Assembly (NCBI GenBank): GCA_964360335.1
Contig: CAYHVH010000001.1
Location: 23,426-87,425, forward strand
From: an uncultured Candidatus Saccharibacteria bacterium
GTDB lineage: Bacteria > Patescibacteriota > Doudnabacteria > UBA920 > 2-01-FULL-46-14
Length of the DNA: 64,000 nt
Direction: 5' to 3'
Made by a program: the position numbers and the translations under genes. The notes beneath the pieces were generated by a model, which had not been told where the DNA came from, searched no databases, and saw only the letters and a list, made by a program, of their open reading frames with translations. Positions 15,847 through 46,145 of this stretch are shown in pieces (the first letter of the stretch is position 1; the number at the start of each line of letters is the position of its first letter).

Positions 15847-16731
15847 CTACCCCGGCCAATCAGAGTAATCCCAGCCATCTGCAAGGGGAAGGTGTATGTT
15901 GTGTCCGTGGAGAGATTTTGTCGAAAGCTCAAGTCTGTTAAAGTCATTAACTTCTGCCTGAAGGGGCACCCATTGTACTGCAAATCCTTCTTGCTTGAGG
16001 CGGTTGATTTTCCGAGGGTTATTCGTGGCGGCAATCAGACCGATTTTTGTGATATCGAAGTGTTTGAGGATTACCATCTGATCTTCCAGCTCGTCCCACT
16101 CCGGACGGCTGGAAATTCTGACAAACGGCTCCCACCAGCGGTCTATCTTGGCCGGGTCGGGGTCAAGGCCTTTTCGAATGGCGACTATTTCCGCCATTGT
16201 ATCAATCAGCGCGTGGTTCCTCGGCCCCAGTCCTTTTCCAACATGATGCAGAGCGAGAATAATCATCCCGGGGTGACCTTCTCCCCAGCTGTTGGAAACC
16301 CGCTGCTTTGCCATCTCGAACTGATCACCGCAATCACACGTTACCGCCCCTTCAACAATGCCATTAAGGCACATCGATTGGAGACGAACGACTACTGCCT
16401 CGGTTTGGAGGCTGCTGTCATTCCCCAGCCAAAGCACCCGATATTCCCGCTCTGGATGATAACAATAACCAGCGATTTCCGGTGGCTGGCTGTCCCTTTT
16501 CGCAACGTCTGACCCTCCCCAAAAACGGAAATGGGCCTTATTGAACAAGACCGCCCTTTCCTCACGACCCCCCAAGCGGCCGAGCGACCACCATTTCCGA
16601 TGACTTTCTGATCGTCGCAACCGCAACCACTCGTGATAGGGCCCAATCATCTCGAAGCCTTGCTCTTGGTTGGTCACAATACCCTCTAGCTTACCCCAAA
16701 AATCCTGACTGCCCCCCTTATTGTCACTCAT
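15847..16731 (-). CDS. GTP cyclohydrolase II (RibA)-family protein with an N-terminal extension
   Basis: 294 aa. VRLQSMCLNG...CDCGDQFE matches the RibA zinc site (HSECLTG...CDCGFQ). GMIILALHHVGKGLG matches GILLYHRQEGRNIG. AATNNPRKINRLKQEGF matches LTNNPKKVEILTEAG. Confidence 0.6.
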   Translation of the reverse strand: MSDNKGGSQDFWGKLEGIVTNQEQGFEMIGPYHEWLRLRRSESHRKWWSLGRLGGREERAVLFNKAHFRFWGGSDVAKRDSQPPEIAGYCYHPEREYRVLWLGNDSSLQTEAVVVRLQSMCLNGIVEGAVTCDCGDQFEMAKQRVSNSWGEGHPGMIILALHHVGKGLGPRNHALIDTMAEIVAIRKGLDPDPAKIDRWWEPFVRISSRPEWDELEDQMVILKHFDITKIGLIAATNNPRKINRLKQEGFAVQWVPLQAEVNDFNRLELSTKSLHGHNIHLPLADGWDYSDWPG

Positions 16732-16829
16732 TGGGTGTCCTCCTTAATGATTTCGAACATTCGATTCTAGCTGAAACTTACAAACTAGTCAATATTAACC
16801 GACTTCTCAATCTTTTAAACATCAAGTGT

Positions 16830-16885
16830 TGACTTATTTTAGCCAAAAATCTATACTATAATTGTTGTCGGATATTACCGACAAT
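16830..16885 (+). promoter_or_regulatory. Sigma-70-like promoter (TTGACT-N17-TATACT) followed by a 20-bp palindromic operator TTGTCGGATATTACCGACAA overlapping the TrmB start; related half-site at ~16772-16790
   Basis: Read directly from the sequence. The second site CTAGTCAATATTAACCGACT shares the ATATTA(A)CCGAC core. Confidence 0.5.
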
Positions 16886-17653
16886 ATAACGGAAAGCTCC
16901 TACATGCCCCTTGAAATAGATTTGAAACAATTTGGTTTTGACGAGAAAAAAGCCAGGATTTACCTGGCAGTCTTAGAGCTGGGTGAGGCAAAAGCAGCCG
17001 AGGTTGCCAAAAAGTCCGGGATAGAAAGACCAACGTGTTATGACATTTTAAATAAACTGGTCCAAGATGGACTTATTAGCTTCTTCGATAAAAGAGGAGT
17101 CAAGCATTTCGTGGCCGAGGACCCAGAAAAAATCCAAGTCCGGCTCGCAGAAAAAGAAAGGGCTCTTAATCAATTATTGCCGGAATTAAAATCGGTTTAT
17201 AATAGCCTAAAAACAAAACCCAAAATCAAATTCTTTGAAGGCCTTGCGGGAATTAAAACAATCCTGGAAGACACGCTTACTCCCCACGATAAACAGCTCT
17301 TGGGCATTTTATCAATGCGGGATCTCTATGAAATTCCGGGGAAAGAATTTATGGACAACTATGTTAAGAGGAGAATTGAAGCAAAAGTTAAACTCCGGGT
17401 TATTCGGTCAAGGATTAAAGAGGTTGGGGAGACTTGGCCTACTAATCCAAAAGAATACCGAGAATTGCGCTACGCTCCGGAAAAATTATCCTTCCCCGTA
17501 ACAATCTACATTTATGATAATAAGGTTGGAATAATCGGCACCAAAAAAGAAAACTTCGGCATGCTCATTGAGTCAGAGGAATTTTTTGAAACCTTCAAGA
17601 ATCTATTCGAAGTTTTGTGGCTCGTATCAAAAGCTGGGCCGACAAAAGATTAA
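16862..17653 (+). CDS. TrmB-family transcriptional regulator (winged-HTH)
   Basis: N-terminal TrmB HTH (GFDEKKARIYLAVLELGEAKAAEVAKKSGIERPTCYDILNKL). The real start may be the internal Met (MPLEID). AT-rich gene. Confidence 0.7.
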   Translation: MLSDITDNITESSYMPLEIDLKQFGFDEKKARIYLAVLELGEAKAAEVAKKSGIERPTCYDILNKLVQDGLISFFDKRGVKHFVAEDPEKIQVRLAEKERALNQLLPELKSVYNSLKTKPKIKFFEGLAGIKTILEDTLTPHDKQLLGILSMRDLYEIPGKEFMDNYVKRRIEAKVKLRVIRSRIKEVGETWPTNPKEYRELRYAPEKLSFPVTIYIYDNKVGIIGTKKENFGMLIESEEFFETFKNLFEVLWLVSKAGPTKD

Positions 17654-17682: not shown

Positions 17683-17717
17683 AGGAGACAGACTACAACG
17701 CGGTCTGTCAGCGCTAA
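17683..17717 (-). repeat. 36-bp hairpin repeat copy 2; terminator of the minus-strand OMP-like gene
   Basis: Identical to 15803-15838. On the minus strand the hairpin is followed by TCCTTTTTAT. Confidence 0.7.
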
Positions 17718-18295
17718 AAACGAACAGTGGTGATGACGTAGGTCCGGAAGAAACGCGGCTCGCCTTGGTTGCGGAAATGGTAAGTCCCAGTTACCCAAAG
17801 GGTAACAGGACCTCGGTTTACGAGCCGAAAGCTGAGTCGCGAGCCACCGCCGTAGGAATCACGCCCACGCTTGTGAAGGTTTTCCGTCTCCACCCCAATC
17901 TTCCATCTGTCGCTTAACCGATAGTCAAATATGACGACTTCGGAAAAACTCCTGCGACTGGAAACGGGATACAACTCAAGGTAGAGATTGGCGCGTTTGC
18001 CGAAATCCCGGTTGAAACGGAAATTGAGCTGCCACTGGTGTCCCTTGGTGCTCCACTGCCGCTGGACGAGTGTCTCGAGCCACCAGTTATTGCGCTTGTA
18101 TCCCAGTCCGCCGAAGAGGTTGATGTTGTCTGGCTGCGCCTGCCGTACATTGCCAATCATCCACCCTGCAAGAAACCAGTTCTCGCCCAGCTTTTTGGTG
18201 ATATGCACTGGCGTCCGCAACTGAACAACATGATCCTGGGCCAAGAGGGGAGAGCCAAAAAGAAGAGCGAGTATCAGCAGCGTTGCTTTGCCCAT
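17714..18295 (-). CDS. Secreted beta-barrel-like protein (OmpW/OMP-beta-barrel-like), 193 aa
   Basis: Signal peptide MGKATLLILALLFGSPLLAQ, alternating amphipathic beta-strand pattern, and a C-terminal aromatic residue (..TTVRF). Confidence 0.4.
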   Translation of the reverse strand: MGKATLLILALLFGSPLLAQDHVVQLRTPVHITKKLGENWFLAGWMIGNVRQAQPDNINLFGGLGYKRNNWWLETLVQRQWSTKGHQWQLNFRFNRDFGKRANLYLELYPVSSRRSFSEVVIFDYRLSDRWKIGVETENLHKRGRDSYGGGSRLSFRLVNRGPVTLWVTGTYHFRNQGEPRFFRTYVITTVRF

Positions 18296-18395
18296 TATTC
18301 CTCCTTGACTTAACCTTTGACAGATTAAGGGGGGAGCATATATTATCTATATGGAGTGGTCAATACCACCACGAGGTGATAATTAACACCACAAA

Positions 18396-19148
18396 ATGTA
18401 TCAAGAAACGTTTGAGAGCTTAGGTTTAAGCCCCAATGAAGCGAAAATCTACGAAGCCCTGGTGGAAAAAGGGGAGTCCTCGGTAAGCGGGGTGGCGGTT
18501 GCTGCAGGCGTGCACCGCCGCAATGCCTACGATGCCATTCGGCGCCTCATTGATAAGGGCCTGTGCTTTGAAATCTTTTCTTCTGGAGAAAATCGATACA
18601 ATGCGGTCGATCCGGATAAACTCACTGAACTTGTGGCCGAGAGGCAGCAAAAATTAGAAAGTATTCTTCCGGAGCTAAAAAAGAAGTTTACCAAACGCAT
18701 TGCCCCCGAGGAAGCCTACATTTACCGGGGGTACGAGGGCCAAAAAAATATCTGGCGCGATTTGCTGCGGGTCGGGGGCGAGAGCTACGTGGTGGGGGCA
18801 AAAGGCGGATGGTTTGAGCCGAACTTGCAGGCAAGCCGTATCGAATTTTTCAAAGAAGCCAACCGAAAAAAAATCAAATTCTTTCAGCTTTTCGACCATG
18901 AAATAAAAATTCAATTTCCGCGGTTCGTCAAAGACTATCCCGGGACGCTTAAATCTCGGTATTTGCCCAAGGAATACTCCACTAATTCGCTGATTCATGT
19001 CTTTGGGGACTACTTCATTACCTATACGGGCTTGGAACTTATGAGGCTAAGTGAAAAAACAGTATTTTTTGTGATCAAAAGCCGCGACCTCGCGGAAAGC
19101 TACCGGACCTGGTTTTGGTACATGTGGGAACAATCTTCGGAAAAGTAG
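18396..19148 (+). CDS. TrmB-family transcriptional regulator (second paralog)
   Basis: N-terminal HTH (LGLSPNEAKIYEALVEKGESSVSGVAVAAGVHRRNAYDAIRRLIDKGL). Upstream TTGACA-N16-TATATT and palindromes GTGGTCAATACCAC / GGTGATAATTAACACC. Confidence 0.7.
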   Translation: MYQETFESLGLSPNEAKIYEALVEKGESSVSGVAVAAGVHRRNAYDAIRRLIDKGLCFEIFSSGENRYNAVDPDKLTELVAERQQKLESILPELKKKFTKRIAPEEAYIYRGYEGQKNIWRDLLRVGGESYVVGAKGGWFEPNLQASRIEFFKEANRKKIKFFQLFDHEIKIQFPRFVKDYPGTLKSRYLPKEYSTNSLIHVFGDYFITYTGLELMRLSEKTVFFVIKSRDLAESYRTWFWYMWEQSSEK

Positions 19149-19222: not shown

Positions 19223-20251
19223 ATGATTAACAAAACCTCCAAACCAAAAAGCCGGGTGGTGACGGCCAAAGAGGAGGTCGCGGACCGCGAGCTGGATTTA
19301 ACGCTGCGGCCGAAAACGCTCGAAGAATACATCGGCCAGAAAAAAATCAAAGAACACCTGGCGATTTTTTTGGGGGCGGCGAAAAAACGCAAGGAGCCGA
19401 TGGAACACGTTCTGGTCTACGGCTCCCCGGGCTTGGGCAAAACCACGCTCGCCCACGTGCTGGCGAAAGAAATGGGAGTGGCCATCAAGGTCACTTCAGG
19501 GCCAGCCATCGAACGAGCCGGGGATTTGGCCAGCCTGCTAACCAATCTCCAGGATCATGACGTTCTGTTTATCGACGAAGTCCACCGCTTGCCCCGGGTG
19601 GTCGAAGAAATTCTCTATCCGGCCATGGAAGACTTTCGGTTTGACATTATCTTGGGCAAGGGGCCCGGGGCGCGCTCGGTCAGGCTAGAGCTGCCGCGCT
19701 TCACCATCATCGGGGCGACGACCCGCATCGGCCTGATTTCTGCCCCCCTGCGCGACCGGTTCGGCGTGACTTTGAAACTCGATTACTACGAACCGCAGGA
19801 AATCGAACAAATTATCGCCCGGTCGGCCAAAATTTTGGCCATTAAAATTGCGGAGGGCGCGATTCGGGAGATCGGCCACCGCGCCCGCTTTACGCCCCGC
19901 ATCGCCAACCGGCTCTTGCGTCGCGTCCGAGATTTTGCCCAAATGCGCGGCGACGGAACGATTACTGAAGATTTGGCCAACACTGCTCTGGAACTTTTAG
20001 AGGTGGACGCTTTGGGTTTGGATCGCAACGACCGACAATTTCTCCTGGCGCTGATTGAAAAGTTTCACGGCGGGCCGGTCGGCTTGGGCTCCCTGGCGGC
20101 CGCTACCAGTGAAGAAGAGGATACCATTGCCGATGTCTACGAGCCATATCTGCTAAGATTGGGGATGCTGTCCCGCACTGCCAAAGGGCGAATGGCCACC
20201 CCGAAAGCCTACAATCACCTCGGCCGGAAACCGGAGCGTTCCCTACTATGA
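19223..20251 (+). CDS. ruvB: Holliday junction branch migration ATPase RuvB
   Basis: 342 aa. AAA+ motifs: Walker [10 protein letters not shown] and Walker B FIDEVHRL. Confidence 0.95.
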
Positions 20252-20454
20252 TCAAACTCCTAGCAGAAATCCTTTTTTACGCCTTGATGCTCCTCCTGGC
20301 GGTTTACAGCGCCGTCATGATTTACGTCTTATTGCGGTTCGGGGAATCAAAGATTTTCGGTTTCGTCCTGTCGGCGTTTTATTTCCTTTTGATGGTTAGT
20401 TTTTACGCCGCGGCTTCCGTGCAGTTTGAAAATCTCCCATTTCCCGAAATATGA
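20248..20454 (+). CDS. Small two-TM membrane protein
   Basis: 68 aa, hydrophobic, translationally coupled to neighbours by ATGA overlaps. Confidence 0.35.
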
Positions 20455-22858: not shown

Positions 22859-23997
22859 AAATTTATTTTTTTAAATTCCCCCTGGGAGCTTCGCTCGGCG
22901 GAGCAGAATTCCATTCCTTGCAACTGGCCGAATATTTCCAAAGGCAAGGGCATGAAGTTCAGCTCTTTAGTTCGGACCGCCGGCTGTTCCGGCTCTTCGA
23001 ACAGCGCCGCTTGCCAAGAAGACGATTATTCGTGGGCTACGAGCCGACCAGCAAACCTGCCCTGCTGCTTTGGCCGCTAACTTACTTTCTGGCCAAACGA
23101 AAATTCCTAAAAATTCTGGCGGCTGTCCCAAACGGCAGCGTGTTCCTTTTTCAGAGTTTAACCGAAAAATTGATTCTGACCGGCCCTGCCCTCAAACACG
23201 GGGTAAAAATTTTCTGGCTTGAGCATAAAATCCCGGGCCGCTGGCTTTGGCAAAACCCCCTAAAATTCTGGTATCTTAAGTTGTCAAGACTGGTTCAGTT
23301 GGTGACTGTGTCGAATTTTGCCAAGCAAGAATTTATTAAACTCGGTGTCCCTGCAAAGAATATTCAAATAATCTACCCCGGCATAAAAACGGGCGGCCTT
23401 GAGCGACCGCCTTTTACCCGCTCCTACACCATCGGCCTTTTGTCGCGGCTCGAACCCGAGAAGGGAATATTAGATTTTCTGCAAATCCTTGGCCCTTATC
23501 TCAAAAAACGCCCGAATTGGCAAGTCCTGGTTGCCGGAACGGGAAGTCAGAATTCCCAAATCCAGAAACTCATTACCGAAACTGCTCTGACAAACCAAGT
23601 CCGACTCTTTGGGTTTGTATCCTCTTTAGACGACTTTTTCTCCCAAATTGCGGTTTTGGTTTATCCCTCCCTTGTCCCCGAATCTTTTGGCCTAAGTATC
23701 GCCCAGGCTCAAGGGCGGGGTATTCCAGTGGTCGCCTCGAGCCGCGGGGCCTTGTCGGAAAGTGTCACGCATCAAAAAACTGGCTTTCTGGTAGAGCCGG
23801 GGAGTCCTGGGCAGTGGGTGGCCTATCTCGAAAAACTAACAAACCCTAAAATCTACCAAGAGATGTCGGCACAAGCCAGGCTGGCCGCGGTAAACTTTGC
23901 CGAAGAGAAAATGTTCACCGCTTTCCACAAACTTTTTTTTCCAGCTAAAATCGGTAAATCACTCGCTTCACCGCTTGGTGGCCGACAGTCTGATTGA
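22855..23997 (+). CDS. Glycosyltransferase family 1
   Basis: Starts MKIYFFKFPLG; the ATG overlaps the flippase stop (ATGA). C-terminal GT1 motif (ESFGLSIAQAQGRGIPVVAS). Confidence 0.75.
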   Translation: MKIYFFKFPLGASLGGAEFHSLQLAEYFQRQGHEVQLFSSDRRLFRLFEQRRLPRRRLFVGYEPTSKPALLLWPLTYFLAKRKFLKILAAVPNGSVFLFQSLTEKLILTGPALKHGVKIFWLEHKIPGRWLWQNPLKFWYLKLSRLVQLVTVSNFAKQEFIKLGVPAKNIQIIYPGIKTGGLERPPFTRSYTIGLLSRLEPEKGILDFLQILGPYLKKRPNWQVLVAGTGSQNSQIQKLITETALTNQVRLFGFVSSLDDFFSQIAVLVYPSLVPESFGLSIAQAQGRGIPVVASSRGALSESVTHQKTGFLVEPGSPGQWVAYLEKLTNPKIYQEMSAQARLAAVNFAEEKMFTAFHKLFFPAKIGKSLASPLGGRQSD

Positions 23998-38786: not shown

Positions 38787-38862
38787 TGGTGGGCCAGGAT
38801 GGATTCGAACCATCGACCCCGGCTTTATAAGAGCCGTGCTCTAACCGCTGAGCTACTGGCCC
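38787..38862 (-). tRNA. tRNA-Ile with anticodon UAU (CCA encoded)
   Basis: GGGCCAGTAGCTCAGCGGTTAGAGCACGGCTCTTATAAAGCCGGGGTCGATGGTTCGAATCCATCCTGGCCCACCA. Clean cloverleaf. Anticodon loop is CTTATAA. Overall similarity to tRNA-Ile. Confidence 0.75.
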
Positions 38863-45422: not shown

Positions 45423-45590
45423 GAGTGCTAACTAAATAATGTGAGCTGTGAAGCGCGTCGAATTGGTCACCTTCCCGACTTGTCGGGATAAGACGCGTGG
45501 AGCTTTAGGGTGAAACCGGCACTCGTATTTTGCAGAGCAGGTTTCGCCACCTGTTTTTTAGTTAGCGCAACAACCAAACAGGAGGCGAAG

Positions 45591-46145
45591 ATGTGGTGGA
45601 AAAAACCGCGGTGGTTTTTCACAGGGTTATACTTGGTATTCGTTGAGGTCTTTATTCACGGCCGGGATGTCCGCGAGGGGTATTCTAAAGATATTCTGTC
45701 CGGACTTTATAATCAGCGGGCTATTCTAGAACTTGCAGTTCGAGCATTAGCGGATGCTAGGCGCGTCGGCAAATGGCTTGCGGTCGTGCACATTGATCTT
45801 GATCACTTCAAAGCCTACAATGACCAGTTTGGTCATTTACGGGGCAACGAAGTGATTCGGCAGTTTGGTCGAATCTTGACTTCTGGCTTGCGGCCGACGG
45901 ATTGGGCTGGCAGATTTGGCGGAGACGAATTTCTGCTGATTCTCCCCGGCGCCGATCCTTATGAGGCCAGCTGTGTAGTACAGAGGCTTAAGCAACTTGG
46001 TCCTCAAATTCCCTTCAGCTTTGGGGTACACAGTGAGCTTGTGATGCGAGGAAGCCAAGTCACGCTCGAGCATTTTATCGAGCGGGCAGACCAAGAAATG
46101 TACGCTCATAAACGGTCCAAGCAACAATTCGCAGTCCAAGTGTAA
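45591..46145 (+). CDS. GGDEF-domain diguanylate cyclase (single N-terminal TM helix)
   Basis: RFGGDEFLLIL active-site motif. AGGAGG SD precedes the ATG at about 45591. Confidence 0.8.
   Translation: MWWKKPRWFFTGLYLVFVEVFIHGRDVREGYSKDILSGLYNQRAILELAVRALADARRVGKWLAVVHIDLDHFKAYNDQFGHLRGNEVIRQFGRILTSGLRPTDWAGRFGGDEFLLILPGADPYEASCVVQRLKQLGPQIPFSFGVHSELVMRGSQVTLEHFIERADQEMYAHKRSKQQFAVQV

Follow-up and report, generated by a model that had tools for sequence, protein, structure and literature searches.

The porins KdgM and NanC of Gram-negative Proteobacteria, which are controlled by the sugar-responsive repressors KdgR and NanR, are the closest described counterparts of the system reported here. 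On a 64,000-nucleotide stretch of DNA (hereafter the window: positions 23,426 to 87,425 of contig CAYHVH010000001.1, assembly GCA_964360335.1) from a member of the Patescibacteria, or candidate phyla radiation (CPR), we found a gene for a small predicted porin-like barrel protein that is paired divergently with a gene for a TrmB-family regulator. The barrel and the KdgM/NanC porins (PDB 4pr7, 4fqe, 2wjr, 8xua) are both small, both consist of an antiparallel meander in which each strand pairs with its next neighbour, and both have a polar, charged lumen. A further parallel is the regulatory partner, which here is of the sugar-sensing TrmB family. The differences extend from the fold to the host. 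The barrel has 11 strands by DSSP, whereas KdgM and NanC have 12; its loops are much shorter on both sides, with a mature length of about 173 amino acids (aa) against about 215 aa; about half of its family carries basic C-terminal tails, which set it apart from KdgM and NanC; and it belongs to Patescibacteria rather than to Gram-negative Proteobacteria.

The 12-stranded barrels of autotransporters, intimin, FapF, PcoB and LpxR share no sequence similarity with the protein, which consists of a barrel and nothing else, having no passenger, plug or linker domain. The neighbouring regulator shares with the archaeal TrmB and TrmBL regulators an N-terminal TrmB winged helix and a palindromic DNA element of the GTG...CAC type adjoining a regulated gene of the transport type. 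Unlike them, the regulator (250 aa) has no recognisable sugar-binding C-terminal domain and comes from a bacterium of the CPR; its binding of a ligand and of DNA is putative.

The CPR have been placed in a monoderm clade, without genes for lipopolysaccharide (LPS) synthesis (10.1101/2021.05.31.446380; PMC5220378; PMC8871954), and they serve as a monoderm example in the debate on whether the first bacteria had one or two membranes (PMC8871954; 10.1101/2021.05.31.446380). They lack fatty-acid synthesis, and the literature states outright that the structure of their envelope is unclear (PMC5220378). A large-scale prediction of barrels has already reported transmembrane barrels in groups including monoderms (PMC10629564), so the mere prediction of a barrel in a monoderm group is not unprecedented. 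In a literature search of incomplete coverage we found no paper on transmembrane barrels in Patescibacteria or on TrmB in the CPR.

A protein family found in Patescibacteria

The barrel gene occupies positions 17714 to 18295 on the minus strand, the place given for the open reading frame (ORF) in the earlier note on this DNA, and encodes 193 aa from an ATG start to a stop codon at 17714-17716. An identical protein was assembled independently from several groundwater samples of the Hainich aquifer (well H51); of six contigs with this protein, five derive from 0.1-µm filters and the sixth from a 0.2-µm filter. These independent assemblies, a syntenic orthologue of 61% identity and 82 profile matches establish that the ORF is more than a chance one.

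A word-indexed search with the single protein recovered only itself and the 61%-identical orthologue. When 1.84 billion cluster representatives were searched exhaustively with a hidden Markov model (HMM), 82 proteins matched at E<=1e-3, including 57 at E<=1e-10; almost all of these relatives are 185-215 aa long and align over their full length. A second search using the alignment added further members, only two of which bear a name, one 'Patescibacteria group bacterium' and the other 'Candidatus Doudnabacteria bacterium'. Pfam gave no match for the barrel protein even at E<=10 and none for 45 relatives at E<=1, NCBIfam gave no match for the protein, and the family profile matched no sequence in the PDB. 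Every family member that is labelled or was checked by its context belongs to Patescibacteria. The protein thus represents an unnamed family, so far found only in this group. The family has a consensus with a signal peptide ending in A-Q, blocks such as W-I-N, P-N-N-L-F-G-G-Y-R, WW-E-M-QRQW, G-ETEN-H and G-GPR-S, and a C-terminus that is commonly R-Y-L...RF. An alignment of 88 sequences underlies the fold model and the counts of C-termini given below. One match of 1399 aa with seven matched stretches (P0069) was set aside as an unrelated repeat, its contig encoding a mitochondrial-carrier protein. A phage origin of the barrel was likewise dropped: the viral structure library BFVD gave no match at E<=0.001.

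The N-terminus of the protein, MGKATLLILALLFGSPLLA followed by QD, has the n-h-c organisation of a cleavable signal peptide, as the earlier note had proposed: a basic n-region, a hydrophobic core of 10 residues and a cleavage-type motif L-L-A can be read from the sequence and the alignment. The peptide comprises residues 1-19 (18239-18295, minus strand), with a helix modelled at residues 4-13, and we infer that signal peptidase I would cleave at about A19, before the nearly invariant Q20. The A-Q pair is kept across the family (entropy of A19 0.99; Q20 conserved in at least 90% of members). The protein contains no Cys and is therefore not a lipoprotein. The mature barrel domain, delimited by DSSP on the model and by the face analysis, corresponds to residues 20-193 (17717-18238, minus strand) and ends in ...YVITTVRF, including the terminal ...TTVRF that had been pointed out earlier.

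As an observation of its own, the column of Q20 (window about 18236-18238) places Gln at position +1 after the predicted cleavage in at least 90% of the family. In Bacteroidota, exported proteins are known to have a conserved Gln at +1, which is cyclised to pyroglutamate; we know of no description of such a residue for the CPR.

Translation of the gene is served by a strong ribosome-binding site, the sequence AAGGAGGAATA standing immediately 5' of the ATG and its Shine-Dalgarno motif GGAGG lying at 18300-18304 on the minus strand, 6 nt before the start codon. In a comparison of six lineages, every one keeps the motif AAGGAGG before the first gene 3' of the promoter.

Predicted fold and distribution of residues on the barrel

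Structure prediction, which the earlier note had proposed as a check, was run with AlphaFold2 on the 88-sequence alignment and returned a porin-like barrel fold (predicted local distance difference test, pLDDT, 94; predicted template modelling score, pTM, 0.83), with all five models scoring 92-94. With two close sequences alone the prediction had a pLDDT of 39 and was unusable. In the model, the signal-peptide helix is followed by an unbroken up-and-down meander of 11 strands of 10-14 residues connected by loops of 2-7 residues; by DSSP the strands span residues 23-35, 40-51, 57-67, 71-82, 85-98, 102-111, 116-126, 131-141, 149-161, 164-175 and 182-192. The best whole-fold matches found by Foldseek are NanC and KdgM, at template modelling (TM) scores of 0.55-0.62. 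The protein had been likened to OmpW, which also has a signal peptide, strands of amphipathic character and a Phe at its C-terminus. This assignment fails: there is no Pfam OmpW match, the model has 11 strands and not 8, and OmpW is missing from both lists of structural matches.

The alternation of hydrophobic and polar residues noticed in the sequence is real, since each of the 11 predicted strands has one apolar and one polar face. Over the family, the apolar face has a Kyte-Doolittle hydropathy of +1.20 and an entropy of 2.54, and the polar face a hydropathy of -1.15 and an entropy of 1.71, the polar face being the more conserved (Mann-Whitney p=1.5e-6). Strand residues of the highest conservation lie almost entirely on the polar face, among them G63, R93, G151, W45, E74, E136, E138, R184, E107, Y186 and H31. 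The central positions of the apolar face (L42, L60, L64, L73, V77, L90, L104, V121, F123, I133, L154 and L158) are 80-98% aliphatic and about 0% charged across the family, and aromatic residues at the strand ends (W40, 84%; Y66, 69%; W71, 66%; W81, 86%; W88, 70%; Y172, 90%; F193, 60%) form two girdles 8-10 residues apart. The loops on the side of the C-terminus are very small, with an excess of basic residues (K+R 4.1 against D+E 1.1). The fold class and the two-face pattern are direct outcomes of these computations.

The combination of a conserved polar face and a variable aliphatic face indicates that the polar network lines the lumen and that the aliphatic residues point towards lipid; in a soluble barrel the pattern would be reversed. 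The assignment of inside and outside thus follows the logic of conservation and composition. The alternative raised in the earlier note, a secreted beta-sandwich that mimics the pattern, is not supported: a soluble sandwich, or a soluble barrel of the lipocalin or nitrobindin type, would be expected to have a conserved hydrophobic core face, a variable polar surface and its best fold matches among soluble proteins, and the protein does not follow this pattern. Under this assignment, the strands are amphipathic and carry an aliphatic belt between two girdles of aromatic residues, as in classical barrels, and the Sec signal peptide read from the sequence is that expected of substrates of the beta-barrel assembly machinery (BAM). 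We consider it likely that the barrel is embedded in a membrane, and a role as a channel is plausible, if appreciably less secure.

A divergent TrmB-family regulator and its putative operator

In every locus examined, including those of remote members found at E about 1e-5 to 1e-6, the barrel gene is divergent from a gene for a TrmB-family protein of about 250 aa. In the window this gene occupies positions 18396-19148 on the plus strand and encodes 250 aa with a winged helix-turn-helix domain (Pfam PF01978, E 9.5e-15, 54.7 bits against a cut-off of 25.6). Its NCBIfam matches to TrmB, TrmBL1 and TrmBL2, over residues 3-106, are weak, and all their scores are far below the cut-offs. The orthologues that adjoin barrels share 67-79% identity with one another, which makes them about as conserved as RuvB, and 23-30% identity with the other TrmB paralogues of the same genomes.

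The two genes appear to be served by overlapping sigma-70-like promoters. The barrel promoter is predicted at 18335-18363 on the minus strand (TTGACC, 17 nt, TATGCT; 9 of 12 matches in a promoter scan), and the same geometry of a -35 box, 17 nt and TAnnnT is seen in five other lineages (L007-L011). The TrmB promoter, close to consensus, is predicted at 18317-18346 on the plus strand (TTGACA, 16 or 18 nt, TATATT or TATTAT; 11 of 12 matches), so placed that the -10 regions of the two promoters interleave. A 16-bp element, TGGTGGTATTGACCAC (family consensus TGGTGgTnTTGGCCAC), lies at 18356-18371 on the minus strand, where it overlaps the barrel -35 box and contains its hexamer; relative to the regulator gene it is located 3' of the promoter, in the 5' leader. 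The element is unique in the window even when 2 mismatches are allowed. Each of the first 11 loci has one copy, in the gap that separates the TrmB gene from the barrel gene or, where there is one, from the leader ORF ahead of the barrel. The element is probably the operator of the TrmB-family regulator. An inverted-repeat search revealed a second palindrome, GGTGATAATTAACACC (GGTG-N8-CACC), to which no strand applies, at 18375-18390, in the interval from the operator to the start codon of TrmB. Similar palindromes of the form GTGGTG-N5-CACCAC occur in L007, L008 and L009, and none in L010 and L011.

A scan of the genome collection with peptide patterns of the barrel gave no matches. The 88-sequence alignment is too diverse for such patterns, and the conserved TrmB partner was therefore used as the probe: its alignment, run against one genome per species, retrieved 80 loci. 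Their labels are nearly all of Patescibacteria (Doudna-, Jorgensen-, Taylor-, Uhr-, Kerfeld-, Harrison-, Lipton-, Zambryski-, Nomura- and Peri-/Peregrinibacteria, Paceibacterota, and third-party annotation (TPA) bins labelled 'Saccharibacteria'), the exceptions being five labelled 'bacterium', one Gammaproteobacteria and one Woesearchaeota. A barrel-family ORF lies immediately upstream and divergent in 35 of the 80 loci. The element, with at most 3 mismatches and within 200 nt upstream of the TrmB start, is present in 68 of the 80 and in 34 of the 35 barrel-positive loci, usually 22-45 nt before the start. The pairing of the genes and the conservation of the DNA element are thus seen directly in the genomes. 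In the simplest reading of these data, the TrmB orthologue would bind the element, regulate its own gene and repress the barrel promoter.

In four lineages an unrelated, non-conserved ORF, each preceded by AAGGAGG, stands between the promoter/operator region and the barrel gene. These leader ORFs are found at 9771-9917 in L007 (48 aa, with a predicted transmembrane helix), 5378-5998 in L008 (206 aa), about 5700-6000 in L010 (about 100 aa) and 5690-6004 in L011 (104 aa). The extra ORFs of L008 and L011 were considered as a barrel paralogue or as the missing 12th strand and rejected (hhalign probability <1%, no Pfam match).

Vertical inheritance of the barrel gene

In two relatives, L007, which carries the 61%-identical barrel, and L009 (Doudnabacteria, GCA_016205105.1), the barrel gene is found at the same place as in the window, within the shared order RuvB - TrmB - barrel - M17 peptidase - VanW - TsaE - DHH - PilB. 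HisG and a HicAB-like pair are located between RuvB and TrmB in L009 only. The identity of the barrel to that of L007 (61%) falls within the values for its neighbours (TsaE 54%, VanW 57%, M17 peptidase 65%, DHH 79%, RuvB 82%), and its identity to that of L009 is 37% against 55-80% for the neighbours. Judged from these comparisons, the barrel gene is vertically inherited and fast-evolving.

The earlier note had considered that the gene might have been acquired horizontally within an islet. Synteny in two relatives and a divergence like that of its neighbours argue against this, as does a GC content (0.538, and 0.644 at third codon positions, GC3) that is typical of the window. The correlation of its relative synonymous codon usage (RSCU) is 0.44, a value that carries little weight because the gene is short and its amino-acid composition unusual. 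The compositional outlier is the adjacent TrmB2 gene at 16862-17653, with a GC of 0.404, a GC3 of 0.432 and a codon-usage correlation of 0.17. TrmB2 is divergently paired with a GTP-cyclohydrolase-II-like gene at 15847-16731, and both are missing from the syntenic loci of L007 and L009. The inserted islet is thus likely to be this pair (15847-17653) and not the barrel gene.

A small gene of 68-69 aa with no Pfam match is kept between ruvB and a bPH-domain gene in the window (about 20248-20454) and in all three related genomes (L001, 7842-8048; L007, 7608-7817; L009, 2294-2503).

Possible function and location of the barrel

On evidence that is computational throughout, we lean towards a small barrel that is exported via Sec, embedded in lipid and acts as a TrmB-regulated channel for small solutes in a lipid layer outside the cytoplasmic membrane. 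After its export the protein would insert into this layer with its aliphatic exterior, bounded by the two aromatic girdles, facing the lipid, and with invariant residues of Glu, Arg, His, Asn and Gly along the wall of a narrow lumen. The gene would be transcribed from its own sigma-70-like promoter, with the -35 box inside the 16-bp operator, and the regulator would repress both its own gene and that of the barrel until a ligand, possibly a sugar, is sensed. Three candidates for the membrane that receives the barrel are an outer layer of the CPR cell that has so far escaped recognition, the membrane of a partner cell, and the cell's own membrane reached from the outside.

Several observations weigh against this interpretation. 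The barrel has no detectable sequence relationship to KdgM and NanC, with 9-14% identity in structural alignments and no profile match. The model of pLDDT 94 has an odd number of strands, as opposed to the even number of classical BAM substrates; to our knowledge, all known bacterial outer-membrane barrels have an even strand number. With 11 strands, the N- and C-termini would be on opposite sides, or the barrel would be closed by a parallel seam, as in the mitochondrial VDAC. A C-terminal F or W is present in only 29 of the 88 family members, and 48 of the 88 carry 1-8 residues past the last strand, mostly basic (the C-termini include RRFALTDRK, RRFSLRRGRK and RRVRLRP), which is unlike BAM substrates. 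The odd strand count of the model and the broken rule of the terminal aromatic residue would argue against a simple BAM-dependent assembly. No outer-membrane biogenesis gene is found in the 64-kb window: the earlier note had seen no Bam or Lol machinery there, and we likewise find no Bam, Lpt, Lol or Tol gene. Finally, CPR cells, which are treated as monoderm and lack LPS genes, offer no known membrane for such a barrel. A shape like that of KdgM and NanC, combined with the failed membership by sequence and with differences in strands, loops, C-terminus and phylum, points to a new family of a known fold class in an unexpected lineage. A bolder proposal, which we regard as rather doubtful, is that Patescibacteria, although regarded as monoderm and devoid of the BAM machinery, make genuine transmembrane barrels independently of BamA, residing in an unrecognised outer lipid layer or forming in a partner membrane a regulated conduit for nutrients or lipids that such reduced epibionts are unable to produce, with the 11 strands and the basic tails as adaptations to insertion without BAM.

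The barrel might instead be directed at a host. Here an epibiotic CPR cell would secrete the protein, which would insert spontaneously into the membrane of its partner and serve as a conduit for nutrients or lipids, or as a damaging pore, switched on by TrmB upon a host cue. The porin-like fold with a lipid-facing exterior and the lack of a known CPR outer membrane (10.1101/2021.05.31.446380; PMC5220378) agree with such a role, and the very short loops (2-7 residues) and the missing terminal aromatic in two thirds of the family fit insertion without BAM. Precedents exist in barrels that move between membranes: PorB of Neisseria enters mitochondria, and PopA of Bdellovibrio has been reported in the inner membrane of the prey (PMC12228718). 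The evolution of the barrel, faster than that of its neighbours in the comparison with the Doudnabacteria relative, is that expected of a protein at an interface. However, no delivery system is linked to the locus, a soluble exit of monomeric barrels from the cell is not known, and the present data suit residence in the cell's own envelope equally well. We judge a host-directed barrel unlikely.

Still less credit can be given to the explanation that the lineage does possess an outer membrane, with the gene for an Omp85-type insertase located in another part of the genome, and that the protein is an ordinary small porin. Much of the protein suits it, from the signal peptide and the terminal ...VRF to the aromatic girdles, the hydrophobic belt and the KdgM/NanC-like fold, and other signal-peptide proteins occupy the same locus elsewhere in the CPR, two of them with weak TorF-family matches. 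It conflicts with the monoderm, LPS-free state of the CPR (10.1101/2021.05.31.446380; PMC5220378; PMC8871954), and the absence of Bam, Lpt, Lol and Tol genes from the 64 kb, the odd strand count, the basic tails and the lack of the terminal aromatic in most members all count against it. Least probable among these explanations is a barrel outside any membrane, secreted or associated with the wall, whose hydrophobic surface would bind or carry lipids or further hydrophobic molecules, or mediate oligomerisation. Such a function would suit organisms unable to make lipids, as the CPR lack fatty-acid synthesis (PMC5220378), and an odd number of strands, possibly with an open seam, could give lateral access. 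The distribution of residues speaks against it: the conserved face is polar and charged and the aliphatic face variable, whereas a soluble barrel built around a hydrophobic core would show the reverse, and an aliphatic belt of 8-10 residues capped by aromatics fits the span of a bilayer.

A conserved, vertically inherited porin-like family across several CPR lineages bears on the nature of the CPR envelope and on the question of the membranes of the first bacteria, for which one small protein with its own regulator and operator offers a concrete molecular handle. If the barrel sits in an outer layer of the CPR cell, the assumption that these bacteria are monoderm needs revisiting; if it enters host membranes, it would represent a new route of nutrient acquisition by epibionts. 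Should neither location hold, the barrels still form a structural family that is new, and the locus a TrmB regulon of deep conservation in a phylum in which little gene regulation has been described.

Other occupants of the locus and gene content of the window

In CPR genomes without the barrel, the gene divergent from the same TrmB orthologue encodes another signal-peptide protein (200-290 aa), which is often the case, a polytopic membrane protein or a solute-binding protein. The alternative signal-peptide proteins (L016, L021, L027, L030, L040, L052, L064 and L069, at about 1450-2400 on the minus strand in each) have no Pfam or NCBIfam match above the cut-offs. Those of L021 and L064 match the putative porins of the TorF/Gcw_chp type weakly (E 1e-4 to 8e-3, below the curated cut-offs). 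None of the alternative signal-peptide proteins is detectably related to the barrel family (hhalign probability <=25%), and they were rejected as its relatives; they may represent further porin-like families in the CPR. Other loci (L061, L062, L065 and L066, at about 1700-2430 on the minus strand, and L050, L053 and L087) encode a polytopic protein of about 200-240 aa or a protein with an N-terminus like that of ABC-type solute-binding proteins. The polytopic protein has the motif ...GYLSV.IT..GY.LY..SMY..., and its copy in L062 has no Pfam or NCBIfam match. The variety of these occupants hints at a wider role of the conserved TrmB regulator, which may act on genes for transport or the envelope at large.

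Two unusual arrangements of the barrel gene were observed. The complete CPR chromosome OZ246418.1 (L029; 808 kb) has two tandem barrel paralogues, at 1053-1718 and 1807-2433, adjoining the TrmB orthologue. The contig k141_246191 of ERZ27254752 (L093; 3398 bp) shows a mirror-image order, TrmB-barrel/barrel-TrmB, with identical lengths, and is probably an assembly artefact.

The gene content of the window, the samples from which the DNA came and the names given to its relatives agree with the earlier suggestion of a CPR-like organism and place it in Patescibacteria, probably close to Doudnabacteria. Among the genes are dnaA-dnaN-recF-dciA, ruvABC, polA, gyrA, rpoBC and valS; others encode FemAB, a Mur ligase, PBP1a and VanW, or a PilB-type ATPase, a short YidC and a Wzy_C protein; and the window also holds a pentose-phosphate/gluconeogenesis cluster. 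In addition, it encodes a tRNA-Ile with the anticodon TAT (38787-38862, minus strand). In most bacteria AUA is read by a lysidine-modified CAT tRNA, and a tRNA-Ile with a UAU anticodon is uncommon. A stand-alone GGDEF diguanylate-cyclase-domain protein of 211 aa is encoded at 45510-46145 in this reduced genome.

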